64,000 bases of DNA, taken from NCBI GenBank assembly GCA_041659805.1, contig JBAZXP010000001.1, positions 320,589 through 384,588 of the forward strand, given 5' to 3'. The translations under genes and the position numbers were made by a program. Source of the DNA: Microgenomates group bacterium (GTDB taxonomy: Bacteria; Patescibacteriota; Microgenomatia; Daviesbacterales; UBA10151). The stretch's first letter is position 1; every line of letters starts with the position of its first letter. Below, piece by piece: positions 9,715 through 48,584 of this stretch. Below the pieces are notes generated by a model. It was not told the DNA's origin and made no database searches. It saw nothing but the letters and a program-made list of their open reading frames with translations.

Positions 9715-10047
9715 ATGAATAATAGACAAAGAAGACATTATAAAATAAGAAAACACGTGATCGGTACAGCTGAAGTCCCAAGATTGAGTGTATTCCGTTC
9801 TAACTCTCATATTTATGCTCAGGTTATTGATGATAGTTTAGGTAAAACTTTAGCATTTGAGTCTGATATCAAATCTGATGCAAAAACCAAAAAAGAAGAC
9901 AGAGCATTTGAAGTCGGTAAAAAATTAGCTGAGAAAGCTGCCAAAAAAGGAATTAAGAAAGTTGTTTTTGATCGCGGTGGATTTTTGTATCACGGAAGAA
10001 TTGCCAAAGTTGCTGATGGGGCAAGAGAAGGAGGACTGCAATTCTAA
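9715..10047 (+). CDS. rplR: 50S ribosomal protein L18
   Basis: [40 protein letters not shown]... is uL18. The track ORF start at 9583 overlaps rplF, so the ATG at 9715 was chosen. Confidence 0.9.
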
Positions 10048-10574
10048 TGAATCCTGAATATCAACAATCCGAATATCTAGAAAAAGTTGTTCAAGTTAAC
10101 AGAGTTTCTAAAAAAACTAAAGGTGGAGATAAAAGATCTTTATCAGTTATTGTAGTGGTAGGGGATCGAAACGGGCAGGTCGGAGTCGGTCTTGGAAAAG
10201 CAGCTGATGTGCAATCAGCAGTTAAAAAAGCAACTTCATATGCTAAAAAACATTTGATCACTGTTCCTATGGTTGATAACAGAACTATCCCTCATGAAAT
10301 TAATATTAAACTTGGTGCAGCTAGAGTTATGTTAAAACCGGCCAAAGCTGGAACAGGTATTATTGCCGGTGGAGCAGTCAGGGTTGTTGTTGAAGCATGT
10401 GGTATTTCAGATATTGTTTCAAAAATATTAGGAACTAAAAATCAGGCATCAAATGTGTATGCAACTTTGGAAGCACTTTCCAGATTACATGCAGTAAGGG
10501 AAAAACAAGTTAAAGAGAAAAAAGAAACAACAGAAAAAGAAGTAAAAGAAGAAAAAGGAAAAGATAAACAATGA
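10047..10574 (+). CDS. rpsE: 30S ribosomal protein S5 with a Lys/Glu-rich C-terminal tail
   Basis: 175 aa; ...VVVGDRNGQVGVGLGKA... is uS5. Confidence 0.95.
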   Translation: MNPEYQQSEYLEKVVQVNRVSKKTKGGDKRSLSVIVVVGDRNGQVGVGLGKAADVQSAVKKATSYAKKHLITVPMVDNRTIPHEINIKLGAARVMLKPAKAGTGIIAGGAVRVVVEACGISDIVSKILGTKNQASNVYATLEALSRLHAVREKQVKEKKETTEKEVKEEKGKDKQ

Positions 10575-17934: not shown

Positions 17935-18579
17935 TTAAATAATTCTATTCATCCCTTTTAATTCTTCTCTATACAGTAAATCCATGGGATTGAATTTATC
18001 TTTATACCAAGATTGCTCAATATTTATTTGTCCTTTATTAAGGTTATTACCGGTGAGTTCATGACATAGTAAATGTCCAACTTTTCGATAATTTTTTACA
18101 TTTTTTAATTCAAATTCCTGTGAATGAGTGGGTCGATCAAATGTGATTAGAACGTTACCTATTCCTAAAAGATCATATAACATACCATTTGTTTGCATAT
18201 CCACTTCTGTAACTCTTACTTGTTCTAGCAAAACCTCGTTCATGATACAGGAAGTGAAGGGTGAAAAAGCAATTTCCAGAATTTTTTTATTAGTAATGAT
18301 ATAGGAATGAAAATACCAATCTGTTAAAGTTCTGGTTAAAAGAATAATTCCAATATTTAAAGATAACATTACTGATGTAAAAAGTAATAAGATAGAACCT
18401 AGAAAATAATATATTATTACAGATCCGGAGAGAAAAAAAAATATTAGTAAAAAAATTAACAAAAGGGTAGTGAAGGTGGTAATAAAATGCTTTCTTACAA
18501 CAACAATTACTTTTTCATTCGGATACTGTAAGAAAGCATTACAACTATGTTCTGTAATAGCTTCCGTCTCGTAATCCAT
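17935..18579 (-). CDS. Membrane protein with two N-terminal TM helices and a bacterial PH (YdbS/YdbT-like) domain
   Basis: 214 aa with hydrophobic N-terminal segments and a C-terminal ~120 aa region resembling bPH_2. Family recalled by eye. Confidence 0.45.
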   Translation of the reverse strand: MDYETEAITEHSCNAFLQYPNEKVIVVVRKHFITTFTTLLLIFLLIFFFLSGSVIIYYFLGSILLLFTSVMLSLNIGIILLTRTLTDWYFHSYIITNKKILEIAFSPFTSCIMNEVLLEQVRVTEVDMQTNGMLYDLLGIGNVLITFDRPTHSQEFELKNVKNYRKVGHLLCHELTGNNLNKGQINIEQSWYKDKFNPMDLLYREELKGMNRII

Positions 18580-18727
18580 ATAGTCCAGTCGGACCTACTT
18601 TACAGCCTGATTTTACCAAAAGGTTTTTAAATTACAAGATATCAAAATTTCTATAAGATACATTTAGGCATAAATCTAATAGATACTTTGTAGTTAAGAT
18701 GTTAAAGATTAGTACGGGTTTAGAAAA

Positions 18728-20278
18728 TTAACTGACATAAGAAACGTCAATATCGTCTCCGTCAAAAACATACTCTACTTTTCTATCTTTGAATGTTGTT
18801 TGTAGATGAACAGGTCTACCCCAAAGCCGGAAGATGTGGGGTAATGTTTTTTTAATATAATCAGAATCCAGTTCTCTGCCTTCATAAAGATGTGAGATAT
18901 GTAACTCATGTTTACCGTAATATTCACAATCTGTTACCTCAAGATAAGGATACCCGGAATTATTCTGTGATTGGACTAAGACTTCTCTGATAATTTTCCA
19001 ATCCTTTTCTTTAACAACATATCTAATTTCTCCCTCAATTTCTTCTCTTTCATAAATATATGTGGCAGTCCTGTCACAGGCAATTTTGTCAAAATGGTTT
19101 CTTAAAAATCCTTGATCATCTTCTGTCTTCATAATACTCCTGATTTTTTTCCTACCAGGGCTATCTTCAATTGGACCATTATATTCAGGATAAATAGGTA
19201 GTCTTTCACTCTCTAGCCATCTTTTTTCTTCGTCTTCAATCTTTCCGTTATAGTAATCTTCTAAATAATCAAATATTGTCATCCCAACATAGTAAGGATT
19301 AATGTGTTTTGGATTTGGGTGCACTACTCCGGCATGAAGCGTCCACCATCCTTCCTGTTCGGCAGGTGAGATATGACCTCTTCTTCCCATCTCTCTCATA
19401 ATTCTTTTATGCCAAAAAGTAGCCCAGCCTTCGTTCATTATTTTCGTTCTCATTTGCGGACGGAAATAAATTGATTCAGAACGGACGATATCTAAAACGT
19501 CTTTTTGCCAGTCTTTTATAACGGGAGAATATTCACGGATGATATGAAGTAAATCCCTGTCAGGATGATAAGGGATAGTAATATTATCAGGTATTATTAA
19601 TTTTTCCTGAGTCTGTCCTATGTTGAATACATCATCATATTCTGTTTTGGGTTTTTCAGCCTTTCTTCTTTTTTCTTTGTCTTCTTCTCTCCATGCAGTA
19701 ATTTGCCTATCTTTCGGTAGACGGTAAAAATTTTTTTCGTCCGGATCAATGTGCTCTTCAATAGTCAGACATGAATCCAAATATCTTTCAACTTCGTTTT
19801 CACCAACTTCTAAACCATACCCTCTAATTCTTTCCGCACTTAAGGCAGCTGTTTGGGGCATATCTTTAGGCGTTGGTTTAAATACGTTGCTGTTGGTAAA
19901 AAAATCTACATGAGCTAAGACGTGAGCAAGAACCATTTTATTAGCAGCCGAATCATTATTATCTAATAAGTATCCTTGGGCGGGATTTGAGTTAATAACA
20001 ACCTCATAAATTTTAGAAAGTCCATGGTCGTACATGGTCTTCATTTGACGGTAGGCTCTGCCGTATGACCAGTGTGAAAAACGGACAGGTAAACCGTATG
20101 AGCCGATTTCGTATATTTTATGAGCGGGAACTAATTCAAAATGAGTGGGGCAAGGCTCTAGTCCAAATTCCTTGCTGATTTCCCAAATATGACCCAATGA
20201 TTGTTCTAAATCATCAACTTGATTTCCTTTACCTCCTGAATTAAAAAATTGATCAAATTCGTTGGCCATATTATGCAA
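18728..20278 (-). CDS. SpoVR/YcgB family protein
   Basis: 516 aa; ...HFELVPAHKIYEIGSYGLPVRFSHWSYGRAYRQMKTMYDHGLSKIYEVVINSNP...MVLAHVLAHVDFF... is typical of SpoVR. It is third in the prkA-yhbH-spoVR order. Confidence 0.85.
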   Translation of the reverse strand: MHNMANEFDQFFNSGGKGNQVDDLEQSLGHIWEISKEFGLEPCPTHFELVPAHKIYEIGSYGLPVRFSHWSYGRAYRQMKTMYDHGLSKIYEVVINSNPAQGYLLDNNDSAANKMVLAHVLAHVDFFTNSNVFKPTPKDMPQTAALSAERIRGYGLEVGENEVERYLDSCLTIEEHIDPDEKNFYRLPKDRQITAWREEDKEKRRKAEKPKTEYDDVFNIGQTQEKLIIPDNITIPYHPDRDLLHIIREYSPVIKDWQKDVLDIVRSESIYFRPQMRTKIMNEGWATFWHKRIMREMGRRGHISPAEQEGWWTLHAGVVHPNPKHINPYYVGMTIFDYLEDYYNGKIEDEEKRWLESERLPIYPEYNGPIEDSPGRKKIRSIMKTEDDQGFLRNHFDKIACDRTATYIYEREEIEGEIRYVVKEKDWKIIREVLVQSQNNSGYPYLEVTDCEYYGKHELHISHLYEGRELDSDYIKKTLPHIFRLWGRPVHLQTTFKDRKVEYVFDGDDIDVSYVS

Positions 20279-21422
20279 CTAAGGTTTTTGTGGGGTCAAA
20301 AACAGCCTGAAGATTAGGCCAAACATCTTCGCGTCTGCTAATAGTCCCTGCATAAAATCTTGGGTTTGAAATAGATCGTCGGTATTCACCGATTAGTCCG
20401 CCGGAAGTGTCATATCCTACCTGAATATAAGTGTACAAATTCACAGGAATTTTTAACATTTCTTGTACTGCTTTAGTTGATGCAGAAGTGTCAGAATCAC
20501 CCCAGTTATCACCATCTGAAAAATGCATAGGGTAAATATTGTATGAATCAACGGGGTAACGTTTTTTAATAATATCCAGTGCTGCAATATTAGCAGAAGA
20601 ACATTTAGTTCCGCCCCCGGCGCCCCTTTTGAAGAATTTTTCTTCATCTACTTCATAAGCCTCAGTATCATGAGCAAGAAAAACTATATCAACTTTTGGG
20701 TATTTAGTTCTTAAAAATTTCACAGCCCACCAACAAAAAGCCCGACTGGCATAAATTTCAAAGTCTCCCATTGATCCGGAAATATCCCTCATTGGGATAA
20801 TAACTGCCTTTGCCTGTTCTCTTTGCTTTTCCTGATATGTTCTAACACGGAAATCTTCCGGAATAATGTCTCCAATTTCTGCTTTGCCGCTTTCTGTCGC
20901 GTTTCTTGTGATATTTGCGTAAACTGTTCTTTGTAAATCTAAATTACTCGGTGTTTTTCTTTTTGCGACAGTATCAAAGGTTGGTTTTTCAGAGATTACA
21001 TCTTGATCCTTTTTGGGCAAGAGATGGGGGAGTCCCAAATCTTTAAAAATCATTGCTTCCAGCTCTGCAATACTTATTTCAGTTTCATAATATTCCACAC
21101 CCGGTTGGTCTCCCGCGCCTTGTCCGGATTGTGATTCAGAATCAATAGTATCTCCCTCCTTTTCTCCTCCTTCTCCGTTTCCAACTCCGCCCTCGTCATT
21201 TTTATAAATAATCCGTGGAAGATTAAGGGCGCGCATTGGAATTTTAACTATTCTTTTGCTGGTTGGATCCGCGGTGATGATACTCCCGTCACTAACAATG
21301 CTATCTAAATTGCCTTGGATTGCTTCTTTGACCTTTTCGTCATGACGGGCAGCATCTCTTGACCCTTGTTGGTTTAGGGACCAATCATGTTTAGAAATAG
21401 ATACAATATCAAACTCATTCAT
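20271..21422 (-). CDS. YeaH/YhbH family protein (DUF444, vWA-like)
   Basis: 383 aa; a Gly/Glu-rich linker followed by a vWA-like core. It overlaps spoVR by 8 nt and sits between prkA and spoVR. Confidence 0.8.
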   Translation of the reverse strand: MNEFDIVSISKHDWSLNQQGSRDAARHDEKVKEAIQGNLDSIVSDGSIITADPTSKRIVKIPMRALNLPRIIYKNDEGGVGNGEGGEKEGDTIDSESQSGQGAGDQPGVEYYETEISIAELEAMIFKDLGLPHLLPKKDQDVISEKPTFDTVAKRKTPSNLDLQRTVYANITRNATESGKAEIGDIIPEDFRVRTYQEKQREQAKAVIIPMRDISGSMGDFEIYASRAFCWWAVKFLRTKYPKVDIVFLAHDTEAYEVDEEKFFKRGAGGGTKCSSANIAALDIIKKRYPVDSYNIYPMHFSDGDNWGDSDTSASTKAVQEMLKIPVNLYTYIQVGYDTSGGLIGEYRRSISNPRFYAGTISRREDVWPNLQAVFDPTKTLVA

Positions 21423-21445
21423 AATTAATATTACACGGTTGATTC

Positions 21446-23362
21446 TTACCTGTTAAGTAGAGTACCTACATATTTCAGTAGATCGTTTGCACAAGTGGCA
21501 CAGTATCCTTTTTCCATTAAAGTTGCAGCAACAGAATTAATTTTTGCCAGTTGTTCCGGATCAGGATTTCTTGTGTTAGTGGTAATTTTAATTACGTCTT
21601 TTAAATCAGCAAAAAGAGTTTTTTCGATTGCATCATTTAACCTGGTGTGTGATTTATAATCAAAACTTTTACCATCGGCTGATAAGTCACCCGCGGATCT
21701 TAAGATTTCATCTCTGAAAGCTTTTTTAGAACTCTCGTCAATTCCTATTTGAGTTTCAATCTTTCTCATTAGTTTTTCATCAGCTTGAACGTCATCTCCT
21801 GTTACCGGGTCTTTTAATTTTCTGCTGAAACTGTAAGCCCTGATATTATCTAAATAATTTTTGAATAAATTTTTAGCTGATTCTTCATATGAATAGACGA
21901 AAGCTCTTTGGACTTCAGTTTTCGCGGCTTCATCATAATCTTTTCTGGCTTCTGATACAAAAGAATGAAAAGCGTCTTTTTGTTCTTTTGTATATTCGCG
22001 AGTGTTGGTGTGCCAGGCCATTCCTTCGCGAAGAGCCCTTAAAACATTTGGAGGTGTTAGACACTCTGTGTCTTTTTTGATTATAGCCTGAGATAAACAG
22101 TCAATTACAAATCTGGGAGATACTCCTTCCATTCCTTCGTCCGGGCGTTTTTCCTGCAATTCTTTAATTTTTTCAGGTGTTAAATCCTCAACATATTCGC
22201 CGTTATATCCCCGGAGCTTACTCATTGCGCTAATTCCGTTTTCTTTAGCCAGTCTGCTTAAAACAGCAAAAGTTGCGGCGGTTTTTAAAGCTAATGGTGC
22301 CAGATGGACTTTTCCTTCACCTTGTCCGGCGGCGTCTGCAACTAATTTACTATAAATTTTTACTTCATCGGAAACTCTTAAGTTATAAGGAACCGGGATA
22401 ATAATAATCCTGTCTTGCATTGCTTCATTTTCTTTTTTCTTCATAAAGTTATCGTATTCAGTTTGGTTGGTATGAGCGACAATTACCAAATCAGCAGAGA
22501 TATCGGCAAAGCGGGGTGGTTTAATCACTCTGCTTTGGCTTAGATCTAAAGTTGCATAAAGAAATTGTGGTTCAATTTTTAGCATTTCGACAAATTCCAT
22601 AAGTCCCCGGTTGGCAATATTTAATTCCCCGTCAAAGCGGTAAGCCCTGGGGTCAGAGGATACTCCGTATTCTGAAAGTTTTGAGAAATCAACGCTTCCG
22701 ACAAGTTCAGTAATATCTTGTGACTTAGGATCAGAGGGTTTGAAATTTCCAATACCGACCCTTTCTGATTTTGAAAGTAAAACTCTGTGTACAATTTCAG
22801 CACTTCTCAAATCTGCAATATTTTTATTTTTATATTCATGTTTACATTGGGGACAAAGGTCTCCTTCAACTGTAATCCCATATTTTCCTAAAAATTGCTC
22901 ACGTAAAGTTTCAGGAATTAATTTTAAAGGATCCTCATGCATCGGACAATCTTTAATTCCATAAAGAGCTCCTTCAGGTGTCAGGCTATAGCTTTCCATG
23001 CCCGCTTTTAGAATCTCTACCAGGGATGTTTTTCCGCCTCCTGGAGGACCCATTAAAAGCAGGATCCTTCTTCCTATTTCCAAACCCTTAGCTCCGCCTT
23101 TCAAAACTTCCGTAAGTTGGTTAGTTGTTTTTTCAATTCCAAAAAGAGCGTGCTTCCCGCTGGTAAAAAATTCCGGTTGGGAAACAGTATCTAGAATATA
23201 TTGAAATGAGTTTCTTGCTAAACGTGGATTTTCTGTTATTTTATTAAAGTACTCACCGAGAGTCATTGTCTCGCTAGCCAATTTCGCCCTCTCGCTTGAG
23301 TAAGTTGCGAGTTCTCCAAACAAATCATTAGTACCTTCGTGTCTTCGGTCTATGTCTGTCAT
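21446..23362 (-). CDS. prkA: PrkA/YeaG family serine protein kinase (AAA+ N-domain)
   Basis: 638 aa; LLLMGPPGGGKTSLVEILK Walker A; overall PrkA architecture. Confidence 0.88.
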   Translation of the reverse strand: MTDIDRRHEGTNDLFGELATYSSERAKLASETMTLGEYFNKITENPRLARNSFQYILDTVSQPEFFTSGKHALFGIEKTTNQLTEVLKGGAKGLEIGRRILLLMGPPGGGKTSLVEILKAGMESYSLTPEGALYGIKDCPMHEDPLKLIPETLREQFLGKYGITVEGDLCPQCKHEYKNKNIADLRSAEIVHRVLLSKSERVGIGNFKPSDPKSQDITELVGSVDFSKLSEYGVSSDPRAYRFDGELNIANRGLMEFVEMLKIEPQFLYATLDLSQSRVIKPPRFADISADLVIVAHTNQTEYDNFMKKKENEAMQDRIIIIPVPYNLRVSDEVKIYSKLVADAAGQGEGKVHLAPLALKTAATFAVLSRLAKENGISAMSKLRGYNGEYVEDLTPEKIKELQEKRPDEGMEGVSPRFVIDCLSQAIIKKDTECLTPPNVLRALREGMAWHTNTREYTKEQKDAFHSFVSEARKDYDEAAKTEVQRAFVYSYEESAKNLFKNYLDNIRAYSFSRKLKDPVTGDDVQADEKLMRKIETQIGIDESSKKAFRDEILRSAGDLSADGKSFDYKSHTRLNDAIEKTLFADLKDVIKITTNTRNPDPEQLAKINSVAATLMEKGYCATCANDLLKYVGTLLNR

Positions 23363-23456
23363 AATTTTGATTTACAAAAGGCAGAATCAAAAGTTAAGAA
23401 TAAGGTAATCTACACCCAGAAACAGTCTTTGTCAATAGATCATCTAAAATTACCCT

Positions 23457-23485
23457 TTGACATTTTATTACAAAAAATCTAATAT
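23457..23485 (+). promoter_or_regulatory. Sigma70-like promoter for metK (TTGACA-N17-TAATAT)
   Basis: ttgaca at 23457-23462, a 17-nt spacer, taatat at 23480-23485. It lies directly upstream of the riboswitch. Confidence 0.45.
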
Positions 23486-23492
23486 CATTATA

Positions 23493-23612
23493 GACTTGAT
23501 TAAATATCAAGAGAGATGGGTAGAGCTCTGGCTCGATGATCCATCCAGCAACCCCTCCACCAAAGGTGGATAAAGGTGCTAAGTCCAGCTCCTGAGTGAA
23601 ATCGAAGGAGAA
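23493..23612 (+). ncRNA. SAM-I (S-box) riboswitch in the metK 5' leader
   Basis: AUCAAGAGAG junction, GAUGG/CCAUC P2, GCAACC, UCCACC-AAA-GGUGGA P3, GGUGCUAAGUCCAGC, CUCCU/AGGAG P4. The 3' strand of P4/P1 contains the metK Shine-Dalgarno sequence AAGGAG. Confidence 0.6.
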
Positions 23613-23625
23613 AGATAAGGTAAAT

Positions 23626-24678
23626 ATGTTTTACAACACAAAAATTTATACAGTAGAAAGCGTAACCTCAGGACACCCGGATAAAATATGTGATGCTATA
23701 TCTGACGCAATTTTAGATGAATGTTTAAAACAAGATCCAACTTCCCGTGTTGCTGTCGAAAGTTTTGGAGGACATGGAGTTTTAATTGTTGGTGGGGAAG
23801 TCACAACAAAAGCAAAAGTTGATTACGAAAAAATTGCTGCCAAAGTTTATAAGGAAATAGGGCACTCAAATAAATTAAAAATAATTACCAATGTAGTCAC
23901 CCAATCACCTGATATAGCCCAAGGGGTTAATACCGGTGGGGCAGGGGATCAAGGTATTATGTATGGATACGCGACTACAGAAACAGATGAGTACTTACCA
24001 AAAGGAATTGTTTTAGTTCATAAATTAGTAAAGGGACTGGAAGATTTAAGAAAGAGTAAAAAAATTTCCTGGCTTAAGCCGGACGGAAAAGCGCAAGTTA
24101 CATTACAAAATGGCAAAGTCAGATCAGTTTTAGTTTCTACACAACATGATAAAAAAGTTTCATCTGAAGAAATTAGAGAAACATTAATTAAAAAATTAAT
24201 TAAACCTGTTATAGGGGATTTAACTGGGGTTGAAGTGTTGGTAAATCCCACAGGGAACTTTGTCTTAGGTGGGTTTGAGGCTGATACAGGGCTCACAGGA
24301 CGGAAATTAATGGTAGATACATATGGTGGTTTAATTCCTCATGGAGGAGGTTGCTTTTCGGGAAAAGATCCGACAAAAGTGGACAGGTCTGCAGCCTACA
24401 TGTGCAGATTTGTTGCCAAAAATATTGTTGCCAATAAACTTGCTAAGGAATGCTTGGTATCTGTGGCTTACGCCATAGGCCGCGCCGAACCATTAATGGT
24501 AGAAGTTATTGATGAAAAAGGAAGAAATATTACCAAACTTATAAAAGGAAAATTTGATTTCCGTCCCCTGGTTATTATAGAAAGACTGGATCTTCAAAAA
24601 CCAATTTACAGCCAAACTTCTTCCTACGGACATTTCGGAAAACCCAATCTCCCTTGGGAACAAATAATTAAATTTTAG
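23626..24678 (+). CDS. metK: S-adenosylmethionine synthetase (compact, about 350 aa)
   Basis: GHPDKICD, GGAGDQGIMYGYA and DTYGG...HGGGCFSGKDPTKVDRSAAY motifs. The start was moved to the ATG at 23626, downstream of the SD in the riboswitch. Confidence 0.92.
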   Translation: MFYNTKIYTVESVTSGHPDKICDAISDAILDECLKQDPTSRVAVESFGGHGVLIVGGEVTTKAKVDYEKIAAKVYKEIGHSNKLKIITNVVTQSPDIAQGVNTGGAGDQGIMYGYATTETDEYLPKGIVLVHKLVKGLEDLRKSKKISWLKPDGKAQVTLQNGKVRSVLVSTQHDKKVSSEEIRETLIKKLIKPVIGDLTGVEVLVNPTGNFVLGGFEADTGLTGRKLMVDTYGGLIPHGGGCFSGKDPTKVDRSAAYMCRFVAKNIVANKLAKECLVSVAYAIGRAEPLMVEVIDEKGRNITKLIKGKFDFRPLVIIERLDLQKPIYSQTSSYGHFGKPNLPWEQIIKF

Positions 24679-26001: not shown

Positions 26002-28680
26002 TTAGAGGTCTAAATATTGGGAAATTGATTGTTTATATTCTGCTTGGAAAGCTTTATCCACTTTCTCTACTGGATTAGATCCCAGAAATTTTAATAATTC
26101 ATCTAATTTTTCTTGACGCTGTGTTTTATCAGAAATTTCTTTTAACACGACGATATCTTTCTCAATTTGAAAATATTTAAGCTTTATATCCAATGGTAGT
26201 TGCCAAAACAATAAGAACCCCCGTTCTGGAAAATCGATGCCGATTATTTTATAACAGGTTTTCATAAATGATTTTTCTAAATTTGAACGGATAGTTTCGG
26301 TTTGTTCCTTAACTTTTTGTACGTCTGATATTGCAAAAGGTTCTGATCCAATTTCATAATACATTTTTATTTTTGGTTCTGTGCCACTTGGTCTGACAGT
26401 AACTTTCATAGAGATTGTACCGGCAACTGGTTTGAAATTAAATTCCAAAATATTTTTGGAAATCATGTCTGTATCTGACAAGATAGGTAATCTTTTTTGA
26501 TAATCTTCAACATTTGAAACTTCAAATTCTCCAAAATTTTGAGGAGGATTATTTCTGAGTGAATCTTGCATTTGGTCTATTTTTGCTTTTCCTTCTGCTC
26601 CAGGAAGTCTAACTTCTGTTAAGTAATTTCTAAAGTATCCATATTTGGAATAAACATCATATAAATAATCAACCAAAGTTTTACCCTGTGGTTTTAATTC
26701 TGCTGCTAGTTCTGATAACCAAATAGCTGCAGTAGCTGCATCTTTATCTCTGGCATAGTTGCCTGCATTGTATCCATGGCTTTCTTCGCATCCAAAAATA
26801 AAGTAATCCATTTTTCCAGCACTTTCCAATTTATTCATTTCATGTGCTACATATTTATAGCCCACTAACAAATCACCTATCAGAGTCACATTATTTTTCT
26901 TGGAAATTTCAGAAATTAAATTTGTAGTGACCAAAGTTTTTATGGCAATTCCTTTTCCGTTAAGTTCTGCTGCACGTTTACTAATTGAATACTCTGCCAA
27001 AATTGCAGCAATTTCATTACCATTCAAAAACAACCACTCTCCGTCGTGCAAAACCATGATGCCGATCCGATCTGCATCAGGGTCGCTGTTTAATAAAATA
27101 TCTGCGCCGATTTCTTTAGCGAATTTTAAAGGAGTATCAAATGACTGTTCAACTTCCGGATTAGGAATGTTAAAAGTTATGTTTTCAAATTTTCCACTGG
27201 GGGAACTGGTTTTTTCATCAATTGCGACCTTAAAACCTAAATATTCAAGTACTTTTACAACTGATGTTGAACCACAACCATGCAGTGGGGTGTAAGCAAT
27301 TTTTATATTGCGTTTATCAGACAGTGAAACGCTTGCAGCTGCTTTAATATATTCCTGATCAACATCTTCACCAAGGGTTACAATTAATCCTTTGTCCTCT
27401 GCTTCTTGAAAATTCATCCCTTTAATTTCACCAACATTTTCAGTAACCTCTTTTACCAGTTCTTCATCATCAGGTGGAATAAGTTGGCCTCCATATTCAT
27501 CATAAATCTTCTTACCATTATGATCTGGTGGGTTGTGTGAAGCAGAGAACATATCACCACCAATGGCTTTTTTATAACGGATCGCAAAAGAAAGTTCCGG
27601 TGTTGTTCTAATACCATTAAAAAAATAGATTTTAATATCATTGGCAGCATAAACCTCTGCAGCAGCTTTTGCCAAGTCTTTAGAAGTTAAGTTTTTGACA
27701 GGGTTAGGTAGATTATCATCAAAATATTGATTGCTAAAAAACTGACGGATATCATAAGCCAGTACTATACCTCTATCTTTTGTGTCAGTGGGATGTTTTT
27801 TTAATAGGTACTGGGAGTGGCCTTGGGCTGATGATTTAATTGTCCAGGGGTTTATCCTGTTTGGTCCAATACCAACTTCACCTCTTCTGCCTCCAGTTCC
27901 AAAAGGAATAACCTGATAAAAAGAATCAAGTAAATAATCCCAGTATTTATTTTTAATCAAATGTTCAATTTGAGGAACATATTCTTTAAATTGAGGATCT
28001 GATAACCAGCTTTCTAAAGACTTAAGGGCTTGAGTTTGAAAAGTATCGCTGACTCCTAAAGTTTTAAATCCAATCTTTGCTTCTTCGAGTAAATTATTGT
28101 CTGTCATATTAAGCAGTTCTGTTATTTTATCATATTTTCCCTGGCGGAGAATTTCTATACCCTGCTCCCCTATTTTAATTAAAGTTGAAGGGTTTGATTC
28201 TAATGTACCTTTATCTTCATAAAAATCAACACTATCACCAAAATATTCTTTTGCTTCAGAAATTGTTTTAGCATAGGGAAATCCTTCTAAATTAGCACTG
28301 GGAGCAATTAGGGGCCCTGTTTCTTTTAATAAATTTAGTAGTTCATTATCATTTGGTATTCTGAAAGCCAGGGTATTGGTGCCTCTGTGAAGGTAGGCAA
28401 AATCATTAGATGAGACAGGTAAGACCACGCTAACCGGATTGGGCCAAATTGTTGCAAGATAGTTCATGGCTATTTGGTTCACAGTTACATCAAAGAGTTT
28501 TAAGTCATCAATGCTAGATATTAGAATAATAAATGGTTTTTCAGGGGCTCTTTTTCGTAACAAATAGACCTTTTCTACAGCCTCTTTATTTAAAGCCTGG
28601 GCAACAATTCCATACTGAGTATCAGTTGGAATTACAGCAATACCTCCTGATTTTAAAATTTGAATTATTTGAGTATCCAT
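26002..28680 (-). CDS. Fusion protein: N-terminal YrdC/TsaC (L-threonylcarbamoyladenylate synthase) domain, then alpha-D-phosphohexomutase (PGM/PMM), then a ~120-aa C-terminal tail
   Basis: N-terminus: PTDTQYG, RKRAPEKPFI, WPNPVSVVLP, PSANLEGFP, NPSTLIKI (YrdC). Middle: SASHNP, DPDADR, CEESHG, RPSGTEP (four-domain phosphohexomutase). Start set to Met27 (ATG at 28680) to avoid a divergent overlap with ppsA. Confidence 0.8.
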   Translation of the reverse strand: MDTQIIQILKSGGIAVIPTDTQYGIVAQALNKEAVEKVYLLRKRAPEKPFIILISSIDDLKLFDVTVNQIAMNYLATIWPNPVSVVLPVSSNDFAYLHRGTNTLAFRIPNDNELLNLLKETGPLIAPSANLEGFPYAKTISEAKEYFGDSVDFYEDKGTLESNPSTLIKIGEQGIEILRQGKYDKITELLNMTDNNLLEEAKIGFKTLGVSDTFQTQALKSLESWLSDPQFKEYVPQIEHLIKNKYWDYLLDSFYQVIPFGTGGRRGEVGIGPNRINPWTIKSSAQGHSQYLLKKHPTDTKDRGIVLAYDIRQFFSNQYFDDNLPNPVKNLTSKDLAKAAAEVYAANDIKIYFFNGIRTTPELSFAIRYKKAIGGDMFSASHNPPDHNGKKIYDEYGGQLIPPDDEELVKEVTENVGEIKGMNFQEAEDKGLIVTLGEDVDQEYIKAAASVSLSDKRNIKIAYTPLHGCGSTSVVKVLEYLGFKVAIDEKTSSPSGKFENITFNIPNPEVEQSFDTPLKFAKEIGADILLNSDPDADRIGIMVLHDGEWLFLNGNEIAAILAEYSISKRAAELNGKGIAIKTLVTTNLISEISKKNNVTLIGDLLVGYKYVAHEMNKLESAGKMDYFIFGCEESHGYNAGNYARDKDAATAAIWLSELAAELKPQGKTLVDYLYDVYSKYGYFRNYLTEVRLPGAEGKAKIDQMQDSLRNNPPQNFGEFEVSNVEDYQKRLPILSDTDMISKNILEFNFKPVAGTISMKVTVRPSGTEPKIKMYYEIGSEPFAISDVQKVKEQTETIRSNLEKSFMKTCYKIIGIDFPERGFLLFWQLPLDIKLKYFQIEKDIVVLKEISDKTQRQEKLDELLKFLGSNPVEKVDKAFQAEYKQSISQYLDL

Positions 28681-28734
28681 AACAGCCTTTATTATACCTT
28701 GATTTTTAAGTCTTCTAAATGAGACAATAAATTT

Positions 28735-31137
28735 ATGCAGCCTGCCTCTGAAGATCAAAAGAAGTTTATAGTTCCCTTAGAAAAAGTTGGTATTGAAGAT
28801 GTTCCAGAAGTAGGTGGTAAAAATGCCTCACTTGGTGAAATGATTCAATATTTGGTGCCTAAAGGGGTAAATGTTCCTGGAGGTTATGTGGTAACAGCTA
28901 CTGCTTACCGCTATTTTCTGGAATCTACTCCATTAAAAGAATTTATCAAAAAAACCCTGGATGGATTAAATACTCACAATATGGAAGAGTTGTCCAGAAA
29001 GGCAAAACAGGTAAGAGATGCAATTGTAACCACCGCGTTCCCCAAGGATTTAGAAGAGGAGATAGAACGTGCTCATCGTGAGATAGAAAAAAGATATGGT
29101 AGAGGTGCTGATTTTGCAGTCAGATCATCTGCCACAGCAGAGGATTTACCAGATGCTTCTTTTGCCGGAGAGCATGAAACATATCTTAATATCAGAGGTG
29201 TTTCTGAAATAGTCAAAGCTGTTAAACGTTCTATGGCGTCTCTTTTTACAGCCAGAGCAATTTCTTACAGAGTTGATAAAAAATTTGATCATTTTTCAAT
29301 TGCGTTATCTGTTGGTGTGCAAAGAATGGTTAGATCAGATCTTGGTTGTTCTGGTGTAATGTTTTCACTAGATACGGAATCAGGTTTTCCGGATGTGGTT
29401 ATTATTGATGGATCATGGGGACTTGGGGAGATGATTGTTCAAGGAGAGGTTACCCCAGATGAGTTTTTGGTTTACAAGCCGAGTTTAGGGAAAGATGGTT
29501 TTACTCCTATTATAGAAAAAAAGTATGGAGTTAAAAATCAAAAAATGATTTATTCAGACACCAGTCCAACAAAAATAGTTTCAACATCGGAAAAAGAAAG
29601 AGCAATTTTTGTTTTGTCTGACGCGGAAATTATTAAATTAGCTGAGTGGGGTGTGGAGGTGGAAAAACATTATTCCAAAAAACATGGCAAATGGACTCCA
29701 ATGGATATGGAATGGGCAAAAGACGGTAAAACTAATGAGTTATTTATGATTCAGGCCAGGCCAGAAACGATTCATGCCACGCGTGATTTTACTAAAGTAA
29801 AAGAATATATAAGGGAAGAAGAAGGAGTTGAAATTGTTAAAGGTGCTTCAGTTGGTGGAAAAATTGCTACAGGCAAGGCTAGGGTAATTTTAAATCCGGC
29901 TGATATTAATAAATTTAAAGAAGGTGAGGTTTTGGTAACAGTCATGACAGATCCAGACTGGGAACCAATCATGAAAATCGCTGCAGGAATTGTAACAGAT
30001 AAAGGTGGAAGAACTTCTCATGCAGCAATTGTTTCCCGAGAACTTGGTATTCCTTGTATTGTAGGTTCTCTTGAGGCAACAGAAAAAATAAAAACAGGGG
30101 ATGAGATAACAGTTGATACATCTGGCTCAGACGGAATTGTTTTTGAAGGTGTTTTGAAATTTAGAGTGGTGGAACATGATACAAAAACTTTACCAAAAAC
30201 AAAAACCCATATCATGATGAATATTGCTACCCCTGATACAGCATTTGAAAAATCATTTTTACCAAATGACGGTGTGGGGCTTGCTCGTGAAGAATTTATT
30301 ATTGCCTCAATTGGAATTCACCCTAACGCATTACTTGATTACCAAAAACTAACACCAAATTTAAAGCGAAAAATTGATGAAAAAACATTTGGTTATCCTG
30401 ACAAGGTTAAATTTTATGTAGATAATTTGGCTTATGGAATTGCAAAAATTGCAGCGGCCTTTAATCCCAAACCAGTGATTGTCCGTTTTTCAGATTTTAA
30501 AACGAATGAATATGGAACTTTACTTGGTGGTGAAGATTATGAACCAAAAGAAGAAAATCCTATGATTGGCTGGCGTGGTGCTTCTCGTTATTATCATCCT
30601 GAATTTACCAAGGCTTTTGAGTTGGAAGTTATTGCCATGAAAAAGGTTCGAGAAGAAATGGGACTAAAAAATGTCATGGCAATGATTCCGTTTTGCAGAA
30701 CAGTTGAAGAAGGAAAAAAAGTTGTTGATTTGATAGAAAAATATGGATTGAAACAATCTGCTGACTTTAAAATTTATGTAATGTGTGAGATTCCAGCAAA
30801 TGTTATCTTAGCTGAGGAATTTTTGGAAGTGTTTGATGGGATGTCAATTGGGTCAAATGATTTGACTCAACTTACTTTGGGTATAGATAGAGACGGGAAT
30901 GAAATGATTAAATCAATTAGTAATGAAAAAGATGAGGCAGTCAAAAAACTTATCAGTGAGGTTATAAAGAAATGTAAAGCCAAAAATAAATATATCGGTA
31001 TTTGCGGACAAGCACCAAGCGATTATCCTGATTTTGCTCAATTTCTAGTTAAAGAGGGGATTGAGAGCATGTCCTTAAATCCTGATTCAGTCATAAATAC
31101 TATTGTCAAAATCCACGAACAGGAAAATAAGAATTAA
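28735..31137 (+). CDS. ppsA: Phosphoenolpyruvate synthase (pyruvate, water dikinase)
   Basis: 800 aa; GGRTSHAAIVSRELGIPCIVG phospho-His motif; the N-terminal ATP-grasp and C-terminal PEP-utilising domains have PpsA length. Confidence 0.88.
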   Translation: MQPASEDQKKFIVPLEKVGIEDVPEVGGKNASLGEMIQYLVPKGVNVPGGYVVTATAYRYFLESTPLKEFIKKTLDGLNTHNMEELSRKAKQVRDAIVTTAFPKDLEEEIERAHREIEKRYGRGADFAVRSSATAEDLPDASFAGEHETYLNIRGVSEIVKAVKRSMASLFTARAISYRVDKKFDHFSIALSVGVQRMVRSDLGCSGVMFSLDTESGFPDVVIIDGSWGLGEMIVQGEVTPDEFLVYKPSLGKDGFTPIIEKKYGVKNQKMIYSDTSPTKIVSTSEKERAIFVLSDAEIIKLAEWGVEVEKHYSKKHGKWTPMDMEWAKDGKTNELFMIQARPETIHATRDFTKVKEYIREEEGVEIVKGASVGGKIATGKARVILNPADINKFKEGEVLVTVMTDPDWEPIMKIAAGIVTDKGGRTSHAAIVSRELGIPCIVGSLEATEKIKTGDEITVDTSGSDGIVFEGVLKFRVVEHDTKTLPKTKTHIMMNIATPDTAFEKSFLPNDGVGLAREEFIIASIGIHPNALLDYQKLTPNLKRKIDEKTFGYPDKVKFYVDNLAYGIAKIAAAFNPKPVIVRFSDFKTNEYGTLLGGEDYEPKEENPMIGWRGASRYYHPEFTKAFELEVIAMKKVREEMGLKNVMAMIPFCRTVEEGKKVVDLIEKYGLKQSADFKIYVMCEIPANVILAEEFLEVFDGMSIGSNDLTQLTLGIDRDGNEMIKSISNEKDEAVKKLISEVIKKCKAKNKYIGICGQAPSDYPDFAQFLVKEGIESMSLNPDSVINTIVKIHEQENKN

Positions 31138-35283: not shown

Positions 35284-36138
35284 TTAAGTATATTTTTTGA
35301 AGAGGTCGGAGAGATCTCTGACAGCGGATTGTTCTATTAAAGGCTTATCTTTTATTTGTGGAATTTGGGATTCATAAGAAGGTTTCTTTTCTTCATATAA
35401 AATACCAAGGGCTATTTTTTTAGGGCCCCATTCTAAAGATTTATTTATTGCTTCTGCTTTATTTGTAACATCATGGCTTTCATCTAATTTATAGGTATTT
35501 GCCTGATAAAATTGATGTGTGTATTCTTTATTAAAAGTCACACATGGTTGCAAGATATCAACCAAACTCAGACCATCATGATTATTGGCTTTAATAATAA
35601 GTTCTGTGAGTCCTGGAATATCACCAGCATATCCGCGGGCAACAAAGGTGGCACCACTGGCAATTGCTAAAGTCATAGGGGAGATGGGGTAATCAGGGTT
35701 TCCGTCTGGTGTAGATTTTGTGACAAAGCCATGGGGAGAAGTAGGGGAAGTTTGCCCGACAGTTAATCCATAAATTCCATTATCATGCAAAATAATAGTT
35801 AAATTATGATTTCTTCTGCAACTATGGACAAAGTGATTTCCGCCTTCTGCCATTGAATCTCCGTCTCCGGTAAAGACAAAAACATTAAGTTTATGATTGG
35901 CAGATTTAATGCCGGTGGCAACTGGTAACGGGCGTCCATGCAATCCTTCAACTGCAGTTATTTTTGTAAAATTGCAGATATGTCCGTGACACCCAATTCC
36001 GGCAACCATCACTGAGTTGGTATTATCCCAGCCTTCCTTGACTGCAGCATTTTTAAATGCGCCCCAAATTGCAAAATCTCCACAACCAGGACACCAATTT
36101 GGTTGACATGGTGTAATTAAATCATTTAAGTTTGTCAT
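35284..36138 (-). CDS. korB: 2-oxoacid:ferredoxin oxidoreductase beta subunit (TPP-binding)
   Basis: 284 aa; CPGCGDF...GIGCHG...FTGDGD are KorB/PorB TPP motifs. Confidence 0.88.
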   Translation of the reverse strand: MTNLNDLITPCQPNWCPGCGDFAIWGAFKNAAVKEGWDNTNSVMVAGIGCHGHICNFTKITAVEGLHGRPLPVATGIKSANHKLNVFVFTGDGDSMAEGGNHFVHSCRRNHNLTIILHDNGIYGLTVGQTSPTSPHGFVTKSTPDGNPDYPISPMTLAIASGATFVARGYAGDIPGLTELIIKANNHDGLSLVDILQPCVTFNKEYTHQFYQANTYKLDESHDVTNKAEAINKSLEWGPKKIALGILYEEKKPSYESQIPQIKDKPLIEQSAVRDLSDLFKKYT

Positions 36139-37850
36139 TTTAATAATTCCTTTATTTTTTCAATTACTTCTTCCGGGTAAATTGGGCGCCCATCATATTT
36201 TAATAATTTATTAGATATTTCTATACCGGTTTTTTCTCTGATAACCTCAGCTAATTGTCCGCTGAAATTACATTCAATATCAAGAAGGATTTTTGCGTTA
36301 TCCAAAATTTCTTTAGCGTCAAGTGGAAAAGGACTCATGTGGGTAATGTGTAAAAAATTAACATTTTCAAAACTTTTAATTGCTTGTAAAATAGCTCCTT
36401 TATTTGATCCCCACGAAATGATTGTTAAGTCTGCTTCTTTGGGACCAAACATTTGTTGTTTTGGCATTTCCTTCAAAAATGAATCATTTTTGCTCATTCT
36501 TTTTTGCATAGAAGCGATTCTTGCATCACTACTTTCGGTTGAATATCCATACTCATCATGTTCATCAGAATTACCAATAAAGAAATTACCAGATCCTGGA
36601 ATTGATCTAAGTGAAACACCGTCAGGGGAGTCAGCAAATCTTTTATAATCATTAATTTTCTCAGTTGAAAATTTTCCCCTGTTAACCTCTTCTTTATTTT
36701 GTGCAAAGATGGGGTAACTTTGGTCTCCCTCACAAATATTTTTATCAACAATTAAAATCACTGGTGTTTGAAATTTATCTGCTATATCAAAAGCCTGTCT
36801 TGTTAAATTAAAGGCTTCCTCTGAGTCGCCTGCCGCAAGTACAATTCTGGGAAAATCTCCTTGATGGGCATGTAACATCATTTTTAAATCTCCTTGATCG
36901 CTCCAGGTAGGCAGGCCGGTGGCAGGCCCTGGTCTCATGCCTTCAATAATAACTAAAGGAGTTTCAATATTAGCAGCCAGCCCATATCCTTCCGCCATTA
37001 AACAAAATCCACCTCCAGAAGTTGCAACCATAGACCTACAACCAGCAAACGATGCACCAATTGCCATATTAATGGCAGCAATTTCATCTTCTGGTTGTTT
37101 ATAAATAAACCTGTATTTTTGTTGGTTTTCTGCTAACACTGTTAAAATATTGGAAGTTGGAGTCATGGGATAAATGGCAGCATATTGTAAACCGGAAGCG
37201 ATGGCGCTTAAGGCAATTGCTTCATTTCCGTTAACAATCATTTTTGCAGTGATATTTTCTAAGGGATTTAATGTAGATAAGATTTTTTCTTTGAAAGTTT
37301 GTTGGACAAAATCAAAACCCGCTTTGGCTGCTTTGATATTTTGTTCTGCAATCTCTCCAGTGAATGACTCATTGATTAAATTATTTAAAATTTCTAAATC
37401 ACCACCCAATAGAGCAATAGCAGAACCAAGAGCTACAGTATTCAACATAATCTTGCTTCCATCTGCTTTGATTGCGAGTTCTGATAGGGGAACCGGTAAA
37501 AGGTTAACTTCTTTTGATATTTTTGAAGTATCAAGTCCATCAGAACCGTCAAATAAAACAAATGAGTTAGGAATTAATTCCTCAAGATGTTTATCAATAG
37601 TTTCTTGGTTTAGGGCAATTAAAAAATTAGTGTGTTTTTGGGGAGCAGTAACTGGATCTTTATCAATGCATATTTGCATGATGTTGTGACCGCCACGAAT
37701 GAGTGATGGATATTCAGTATAGGTATAAATATTGTAACCTGAGCGAGTGGCAACTTTTGCGAGCATTAAACCTGCTGATTTTATTCCCTGTCCTGCTTGT
37801 CCGCCTATTTTAAGACTGAATATTTGCATTTGTGAATCTAAATTTACCAT
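36135..37850 (-). CDS. korA: 2-oxoacid:ferredoxin oxidoreductase alpha subunit with a fused N-terminal gamma domain
   Basis: 571 aa; the N-terminal IGGQAGQGIKSAGLMLA is a PorG-like domain and the remainder is the alpha (pyruvate-flavodoxin oxidoreductase domain I/II) region. Confidence 0.88.
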   Translation of the reverse strand: MVNLDSQMQIFSLKIGGQAGQGIKSAGLMLAKVATRSGYNIYTYTEYPSLIRGGHNIMQICIDKDPVTAPQKHTNFLIALNQETIDKHLEELIPNSFVLFDGSDGLDTSKISKEVNLLPVPLSELAIKADGSKIMLNTVALGSAIALLGGDLEILNNLINESFTGEIAEQNIKAAKAGFDFVQQTFKEKILSTLNPLENITAKMIVNGNEAIALSAIASGLQYAAIYPMTPTSNILTVLAENQQKYRFIYKQPEDEIAAINMAIGASFAGCRSMVATSGGGFCLMAEGYGLAANIETPLVIIEGMRPGPATGLPTWSDQGDLKMMLHAHQGDFPRIVLAAGDSEEAFNLTRQAFDIADKFQTPVILIVDKNICEGDQSYPIFAQNKEEVNRGKFSTEKINDYKRFADSPDGVSLRSIPGSGNFFIGNSDEHDEYGYSTESSDARIASMQKRMSKNDSFLKEMPKQQMFGPKEADLTIISWGSNKGAILQAIKSFENVNFLHITHMSPFPLDAKEILDNAKILLDIECNFSGQLAEVIREKTGIEISNKLLKYDGRPIYPEEVIEKIKELLK

Positions 37851-37851
37851 A

Positions 37852-48297: not shown

Positions 48298-48584
48298 ATG
48301 CCTAGGAAGTTGGATGATACTACGTTCAGTTACATGAACGCAGAGGAAAGTCCAGACAGCATAGAGCAGGGTGGACGGTGTAAGCCGTCAGTCGTAAGAC
48401 CTAGTTAGAGCAACAGTGACGAACCGAGGTCAAGCTCGGGTGAAACGGGCAATCCTCCCCGCTGCAATCCTAGAATGACTGAGCTGCTCGCTCTTTAGTC
48501 TAAATCAGGAGCGTTAGATAGATTTCATCACTTTTTACGCAAGTGAAAAGCACAGAATCTGGCTTATAGGCTTCCTAGGCACAA
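48298..48584 (+). ncRNA. rnpB: RNase P RNA (bacterial type, reduced to about 285 nt)
   Basis: P1 GCCUAGGAAG...CUUCCUAGGC, P4 5' strand GAGGAAAGUCCAGAC, AUAGAGCAGGGUG, GGUGUAAGCC, GCAACAGUGACGAACC, GGGUGAAACGGGC, and P4 3' strand CACAGAAUCUGGCUUAUAGGC. A TATAAT box at 48286-48291 lies just upstream. Confidence 0.7.

Follow-up and report, generated by a model that had tools for sequence, protein, structure and literature searches.

Few bacterial gene sets are as widely conserved as the YeaG/YeaH/YcgB triad while still lacking a mechanism. In Escherichia coli, a non-sporulating host, the yeaG-yeaH operon is functionally linked to ycgB, and the module is tied to adaptation to starvation and stationary phase, with YeaG being required for survival of sustained nitrogen starvation (PMC4664914). 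The three genes also show cofitness (r>0.7) in six bacteria (bioRxiv 10.1101/072470). In Bacillus anthracis, the YeaG homolog PrkA is an AAA+ protein on which spore quality and osmotic tolerance depend; neither kinase nor protease activity was detectable in vitro and a scaffold role has been proposed (PMC13001217). Here, we describe a complete prkA-yhbH-spoVR triad in a 64,000-nucleotide stretch of DNA (contig JBAZXP010000001.1, positions 320,589 to 384,588; hereafter the window) from a Microgenomates group bacterium (assembly GCA_041659805.1), a member of the candidate phyla radiation (CPR). In the literature that we searched, we found no description of the full triad or of its CPR clade; spoVR alone came up once, in a brief remark on a Patescibacteria metagenome-assembled genome (MAG) that calls the gene ‘newly acquired’ in Saccharimonadia (PMC11484240).

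The triad of the window appears to belong to a distinct lineage of this module. All contigs on which this lineage has been seen so far are CPR or CPR-like, and it seems to be accessory and under purifying selection. The novelty of this is modest, and no new kind of system or mechanism is revealed. Taken as a whole, we consider it probable that the genes form a functional operon of a CPR-type lineage that would be inherited vertically within sublineages, with repeated loss, and would serve in growth arrest.

When the locus is compared with the described systems, both shared and separate features emerge. The window and E. coli encode the same three Pfam families, although sequence identity is low; E. 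coli expresses them from two transcription units under NtrC/sigma-54 and RpoS, whereas the window has a single apparent unit with a sigma-70-like promoter. Unlike that of E. coli, the DUF444 protein of the window is of the short, Bacillus-like YhbH type (383 amino acids (aa)). B. anthracis PrkA has the same architecture of an AAA+ and a C-terminal domain (PMC13001217), and the Bacillus PrkA proteins are ~48-52% identical to that of the window. Bacillus also shares the order prkA-yhbH, with spoVR nearby in some Bacillales. However, the window proteins fall outside the clade of Bacillota and Chloroflexota, the window SpoVR carries three extra insertions, and sporulation genes were not seen in the window; CPR bacteria are not known to form endospores. 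Chloroflexota operons (loci L003, L005-L008, L016 and L036; homologous loci are given L numbers here) have the identical three-gene order with tight spacing, and Chloroflexota provide the highest-scoring named PrkA homologs, yet all three of their proteins form a separate clade, their SpoVR lacks the insertions and their GC content is 49-57%, compared with 36% in the window.

The separation of the two clades is apparent for each of the three proteins. Searched against 5.8 billion protein clusters, the window PrkA finds its nearest homologs in three metagenomic proteins at 80, 78 and 67% identity, beneath which lies a plateau at 50-57%. In a neighbor-joining tree of the top 120 matches and labeled references this plateau splits in two: a long-branched clade that includes the window protein (33 clusters, a lower bound obtained with clustering at 90% identity), and another composed of Chloroflexota, Bacillota, Acidobacteriota and Armatimonadota sequences. 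The split was recovered in 200/200 bootstraps each for PrkA, YhbH and SpoVR, the latter two taken from the corresponding loci. The window YhbH is 53-56% identical to its homologs in L044/L045 vs 40-44% to those of Chloroflexota, and the corresponding ranges for SpoVR are 51-55% and 37-41%. The three SpoVR insertions (4 residues after ‘IMREM’, 14-15 residues reading ‘WLExExLPIYPxYxGP’, and 4-5 residues before the C-terminal domain) are common to the window and L044-L048 and missing in Chloroflexota, Bacillota and Acidobacteriota; the single Armatimonadota SpoVR (L035) partly has two of them. A profile search of a representative library clustered at 50% identity, to which no taxonomy is attached, returned 841 clusters at E<=1e-30; among the 150 best-ranked representatives, 11 were nearer to the CPR-type clade than to the others, a figure that gives its rough size only. 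These counts point to a small but deep branch of the PrkA family.

Profile searches with Pfam and NCBIfam agree with the family assignments proposed in the first-pass annotation, which had described three consecutive minus-strand genes for proteins of 638, 383 and 516 aa; the coordinates in the list of open reading frames (ORFs) match these exactly. Pfam scores lie far over threshold: PrkA matches AAA_PrkA (PF08298; 6e-93, 312 bits) and PrkA_C (PF06798; 7e-80, 269 bits) against a gathering cut-off of 25, the DUF444 protein matches PF04285 (2.8e-78, 264 bits vs a cut-off of 27), and SpoVR matches PF04293 (3.9e-108, 362 bits; cut-off 27) and SpoVR_C (PF24755; 2e-11, 44 bits; cut-off 27.6). NCBIfam gives the same three families with every equivalog model under its cut-off, so these are divergent family members. 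Against the enterobacterial equivalogs the window scores 297 bits (PrkA against NF011999, enterobacterial YeaG; cut-off 576) and 203 bits (cut-off 679). The closest NCBIfam model for the DUF444 protein is TIGR02877 (spore_yhbH), at 380 bits vs a cut-off of 468, and the name ‘sporulation protein YhbH’ is therefore not transferable to it.

The residues expected of each family are in place. PrkA residues 65-636 match a solved ‘Serine protein kinase’ (PDB ID: 9xip; E 1e-134), and its Walker A motif (GPPGGGKT at 105-112, G105...K111-T) is intact. Across the 33 clade members 130 PrkA columns are invariant, among them the cysteines C139, C170, C173, C434, C621 and C624, which include two CxxC-type groups; the Walker A and cysteine motifs also align in 9xip. 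In YhbH, the metal ion-dependent adhesion site (MIDAS) of the von Willebrand factor A (vWA) domain is complete and invariant in 36 sequences (D213-x-S215-x-S217, T272, D303), the direct match to VWA_CoxE being weak (E 0.0015). SpoVR has the conserved motifs NEGWA(T/S)FWH and AHVLxHxDFF. A PDB sequence search returned no matches for SpoVR or the DUF444 protein. Judged by these sequence features, we take the three to be genuine PrkA/YeaG, DUF444/YeaH-YhbH and SpoVR/YcgB proteins that are not equivalogs of the enterobacterial or Bacillus proteins. Some PrkA homologs in the representative library (P0384, P0385, P0391, P0394, P0430, P0435 and P0437) are 1000-1570 aa long and match the profile in 2-3 stretches, with inserts several hundred residues long that split or lengthen the core.

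The genes are adjacent and co-oriented in the order prkA-yhbH-spoVR (Table 1), an order shared by each of the 8 complete loci with a CPR context and by 14 of those outside CPR. The packing is operon-like: 23 nucleotides (nt) separate prkA from the DUF444 gene, and no terminator-like site was found after prkA, the DUF444 gene or spoVR. The tight junction between the last two genes stands as first annotated, whereas its 8-nt overlap holds only if the TTG start of spoVR is chosen; the ATG, which follows the TAA stop of the DUF444 gene, gives a spacing of +1 nt, is used by the public gene call and lines up with homolog N-termini. The promoter sequence reported ahead of prkA is likewise present, yet the region is AT-rich, and its shuffled sequence yields promoter-like matches just as often (16 found vs 16.6 expected). 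Its -35 box and a ‘TAG..TACCTTA’ block are kept in L043, the one available relative, and this conservation together with the intergenic position makes the motif a candidate promoter.

Table 1. Positions of the triad and of other features in the window
Feature	Position	Strand	Details
prkA/yeaG	21446..23362	-	638 aa; AAA+ ATPase domain and C-terminal PrkA (‘kinase-like’) domain
yhbH/yeaH	20271..21422	-	383 aa; DUF444 protein with vWA domain
spoVR/ycgB	18728..20269	-	513 aa from ATG at 20269; 516 aa from TTG at 20278
Candidate sigma-70-type operon promoter	23435..23407	-	TTGACA-17-TAGATT; 45 nt upstream of prkA ATG
Intergenic region, prkA to metK	23363-23625		
Candidate divergent metK promoter	23457..23485	+	TTGACA-17-TAATAT; sigma-70-like; block conserved in L043; outside triad
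S-adenosylmethionine (SAM)-I riboswitch aptamer, RF00162	23501..23621	+	44.9 bits vs gathering 44.4; precedes metK; outside triad
metK	23626-24678	+	ATG at 23626
Predicted membrane protein	17935-18579	-	214 aa; just downstream of spoVR
Promoter-like site of the membrane protein gene	18637..18610		
S5 gene	10047-10574		
L15 gene	10571-11011		
Class A RNase P RNA	48302-48582	+	281 nt; 107.8 bits vs gathering 100
Sua5/YrdC-phosphoglucomutase fusion	26002-28758	-	892-918 aa
Acetyl-CoA synthetase-oxidoreductase fusion	36135-40716	-	954 aa

The guess that the host belongs to the CPR, made initially from the sequence, proved correct. The window PrkA is 100% identical to the NCBI proteins MFA5932792.1 and MFA6453260.1 (‘MAG: protein prkA [Microgenomates group bacterium]’), a taxon placed by NCBI in the Patescibacteria group, and contigs reach 1.13 Mb (1,130,263 bp), with a host genome of about 1.1 Mb. 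In addition, the S5 gene overlaps the L15 gene by 4 nt with no uL30 gene between them, which is consistent with the loss of uL30 that is reportedly a hallmark of CPR. MAG-derived sequence in general can be chimeric, and a non-CPR fragment might have been joined to a CPR contig during assembly or binning. Such chimerism is very unlikely here, to the point of being negligible: the genes are embedded between a ribosomal cluster and metK in a window of uniform composition, the identical arrangement is found in independent assemblies (contigs of 837 kb from ENA and 11.6 kb from Logan, NCBI records of up to 1.13 Mb, and JGI data), and the diverged relative L043 has the same metK junction.

Alternatively, the triad might have reached this single Microgenomates genome recently, by horizontal transfer from a donor resembling Chloroflexota or Bacillota. 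Chloroflexota provide the best named matches outside close relatives (52-54% identity); when GTDB species representatives were scanned, the only matches were Chloroflexota, Bacillales and similar loci at ~50% identity; the module is patchy in CPR; and spoVR has been called newly acquired in the Saccharimonadia MAG cited above. The GTDB scan, however, used exact 8-residue patterns from the window PrkA and is blind to diverged CPR homologs. The GC or codon-usage shift that an import might have left is not visible when the triad genes are set against the window's 71 ORFs (GC z +0.4 to +1.4, GC at third codon positions z ~+1, synonymous-codon log-likelihood z -0.7 to +0.3). All three proteins are nearer to CPR-context homologs than to Chloroflexota, the split has full bootstrap support and is backed by the common SpoVR indels, and the metK-prkA junction is kept in a relative (L043) with PrkA at 80% identity and saturated synonymous divergence (dS). 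An anomalous or fresh import, raised at the outset, is thus improbable and largely refuted already: the composition matches the rest of the window, a relative at 80% identity has the same junction, and the clade is distinct for all three proteins.

Every readable clade locus (L043-L048 and L218) has the same gene order, the contig ending inside spoVR in L043 and L218. In L046, a 951,863-bp contig, BipA is 89-98% identical to Candidatus Saccharibacteria or Saccharimonadales proteins, and the best named matches of TsaD in L044 begin ‘Candidat...’ and ‘Patescib...’, the rest of these names not being readable. The surroundings of the other clade loci resemble those in small genomes, with genes for ribosomal proteins, tRNA synthetases and type IV pilins alongside numerous orphan ORFs. 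Microgenomates and Saccharibacteria, at the least, are represented in the clade. Synteny is conserved locally in three cases. L043, with PrkA 80% and MetK 91.5% identical to those of the window, shares the divergent metK-prkA junction; L047 and L048 have RF1-L31, the triad and EamA-HisRS in common; and in the Saccharimonadales loci L046 and L218 (BipA 92% and PrkA 79% identical to each other) the triad directly follows a block of BipA, trehalase, GDE, glycosyltransferase, MgsA, Ddl and Band_7 genes.

Four related Saccharimonadales lineages keep this block with unrelated genes after Band_7 and no triad at the spot. Their BipA proteins are 98% (L216), 95% (L217), 94% (L053-L055) and 92% (L050-L052) identical to that of L046. 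The presence of the triad in two and its lack in four lineages at the same locus argues that the module is accessory in CPR, apparently kept at a syntenic place in some lineages and lost or replaced in close relatives. The triad, first flagged as unexpected in such a genome, is therefore not ubiquitous in CPR. The spot after Band_7 holds a two-component system beside the triad in L046 (14760-16438) and the triad in L218; in the close relatives it holds unrelated genes such as those for OMP decarboxylase, an alcohol dehydrogenase, HxlR/TfoX or RibD_C/PadR.

The same patchiness could be explained if the triad had spread laterally within CPR, by phage or another mobile element, and the clade reflected a common gene pool rather than descent with loss. 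Its sites do differ by lineage (beside metK/rpsI, between RF1-L31 and HisRS, after Band_7, and at TsaD or TGT), the Saccharimonadales triad sits in a variable spot with different genes in each relative, and phages, among them Thermus and jumbo phages, do carry PrkA homologs. A phage vector was nevertheless rejected, none of 80 IMG/VR PrkA loci being nearer to the CPR-type clade than to non-CPR PrkA. The phage copies in GenBank are only 29-36% identical, and neither an integrase nor any other mobile-element gene lies next to the window triad. The presence of the triad at the same locus in two Saccharimonadales lineages with PrkA at 79% identity favors descent and loss, as does the conserved synteny of L047 and L048. 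We regard lateral spread within CPR as unlikely, and prefer vertical inheritance within sublineages with repeated loss.

Comparison of the window with L043 gives ratios of nonsynonymous to synonymous divergence (dN/dS) of 0.058 for prkA, 0.072 for yhbH and 0.046 for metK, which are upper-range approximations as dS is saturated. These values point to strong purifying selection on the triad, similar to that on metK.

How the three proteins might work can be proposed from their families. An AlphaFold2 model of the window PrkA (predicted local distance difference test (pLDDT) score 75.8) had no match at E<=0.001 in a Foldseek copy of the PDB that did not contain 9xip. Lon-type and other HCLR or classic AAA+ unfoldases (Lon, FtsH, Clp) head the list of weak matches, which so provide a general AAA+ placement only. 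A single-sequence model of SpoVR (pLDDT 33) was unusable. PDB entries 9xip, 9xiq and 9xir, for which no citing paper was found in the literature searched, describe a 692-aa ‘Serine protein kinase’, a PrkA homolog, with 30 chains over the three entries; at about ten chains per entry, a homolog of this type may form a large oligomer. An AAA+ ATPase gene beside a gene for a vWA protein with intact MIDAS is also the arrangement of NorQ-NorD, CbbQ-CbbO, RavA-ViaA and ChlI-ChlD. This likeness is an analogy and does not amount to membership: the PrkA AAA+ domain is nearer the Lon/HCLR type than the MoxR type, its C-terminal domain is unique, and SpoVR is a third obligatory partner.

In the mechanism that we favor, the sigma-70-type promoter would transcribe the three genes as one unit, and the products would act jointly as a device for adaptation to growth arrest or starvation. 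PrkA would form a Lon-like AAA+ ATPase ring, with a ‘kinase’ domain of doubtful catalytic activity, that spends ATP to remodel or sequester target proteins; YhbH, through its vWA/MIDAS domain, would serve this ring as a metal-dependent adaptor, with SpoVR as a third partner that is likewise obligatory. Growth arrest would presumably switch the device on, and an episymbiont could benefit by surviving nutrient-poor or host-free periods. That the genes form one operon and that the three proteins function together is supported, while the biochemical roles and the trigger we infer from the families.

Several points weigh against the reading of a functional, vertically inherited CPR-type operon with a role in growth arrest. 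A taxonomic label is available for three of the 33 clade members (the window, L046 and L044), the rest being assigned by gene context. The trees are neighbor-joining only, and fast evolution in CPR could inflate the separation of the clade. Patchiness was observed in Saccharimonadales and not in the window's own Microgenomates lineage. Expression and function in this organism are predicted from the genes. Kinase, protease and scaffold activities of PrkA have each been claimed or denied in model organisms (PMC13001217), and the AAA+/vWA partnership is an analogy in which NorQ-NorD ranks 44 in the fold search.

A distinct version of the triad that persists, apparently under purifying selection, in ~1 Mb genomes stripped of most biosynthesis and regulation argues for a self-contained, host-independent benefit, most likely survival in growth arrest. 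The module would operate independently of the RpoS, NtrC and sporulation sigma-factor circuitry that is used in model organisms, and it is a candidate marker of CPR lineages that can persist apart from a host. A bolder proposal, which we advance tentatively and regard as doubtful, is that CPR have a triad lineage of their own that predates the split of Microgenomates and Saccharibacteria, has often been lost, and forms the core of a program for dormancy or host-free survival in those episymbionts that keep it. If this were true, tiny CPR genomes with little other regulation would be an unusually clean system for solving the function of the triad.

Across the intergenic region upstream of prkA lies metK, on the opposite strand and preceded by an S-adenosylmethionine riboswitch (Table 1), a divergent layout that had been recognized from the sequence and is confirmed by the match to RF00162. 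The riboswitch is credible because the same element precedes metK in L043 (749-856) and in 11/19 related metK loci (MetK 67-76% identical, riboswitch scores 46-66 bits; those listed are L056, L060, L061, L075, L076, L083, L095, L100, L103 and L107). The metK ATG begins 5 nt beyond the end of the window aptamer, whose 3' P1 strand includes AAGG, and this suggests translational rather than terminator-based control. The proposal that prkA and metK share a control region did not hold up, as there are two back-to-back sigma-70-like promoters and no evidence of co-regulation. Loss of YeaG in E. coli derepresses methionine biosynthesis genes in nitrogen starvation (bioRxiv 10.1101/254623). We considered a functional link between prkA and metK and set it aside; the two genes are neighbors only in the window lineage and in L043, and in none of the other triad loci, so that their adjacency is probably a coincidence. 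In a MetK-seeded scan of JGI metagenomes (MetK 67-76% identical), 0/80 loci had the triad or rpsI/rplM near metK, and the gene neighborhood of the window is thus lineage-specific. Adjacency to the ribosomal supercluster, which the first-pass annotation emphasized, is real in the window and is not conserved outside this narrow lineage.

On the other side of the triad, the gene for the predicted membrane protein has a GC content of 28.5% (z -2.2) and its own promoter-like site. The protein had no family match in profile searches. It was rejected as a part of the module, having no homolog in the fetched stretches of the complete CPR-context loci L044-L048.

Further features of the window lie away from the triad. 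The RNase P RNA matches the 367-position Rfam model end to end and is apparently strongly shortened. One ORF fuses a Sua5/YrdC domain, of tRNA t6A synthesis, to a complete phosphoglucomutase/phosphomannomutase with domains I-III, and gene calls in two independent assemblies, L001 and L002, show the same fusion. In another, an ADP-forming acetyl-CoA synthetase with CoA-binding, ligase and ATP-grasp domains is fused to FAD-/NAD-binding oxidoreductase domains at the C-terminal end; this ORF lies directly upstream of a gene for a fused pyruvate:ferredoxin oxidoreductase gamma/alpha subunit.

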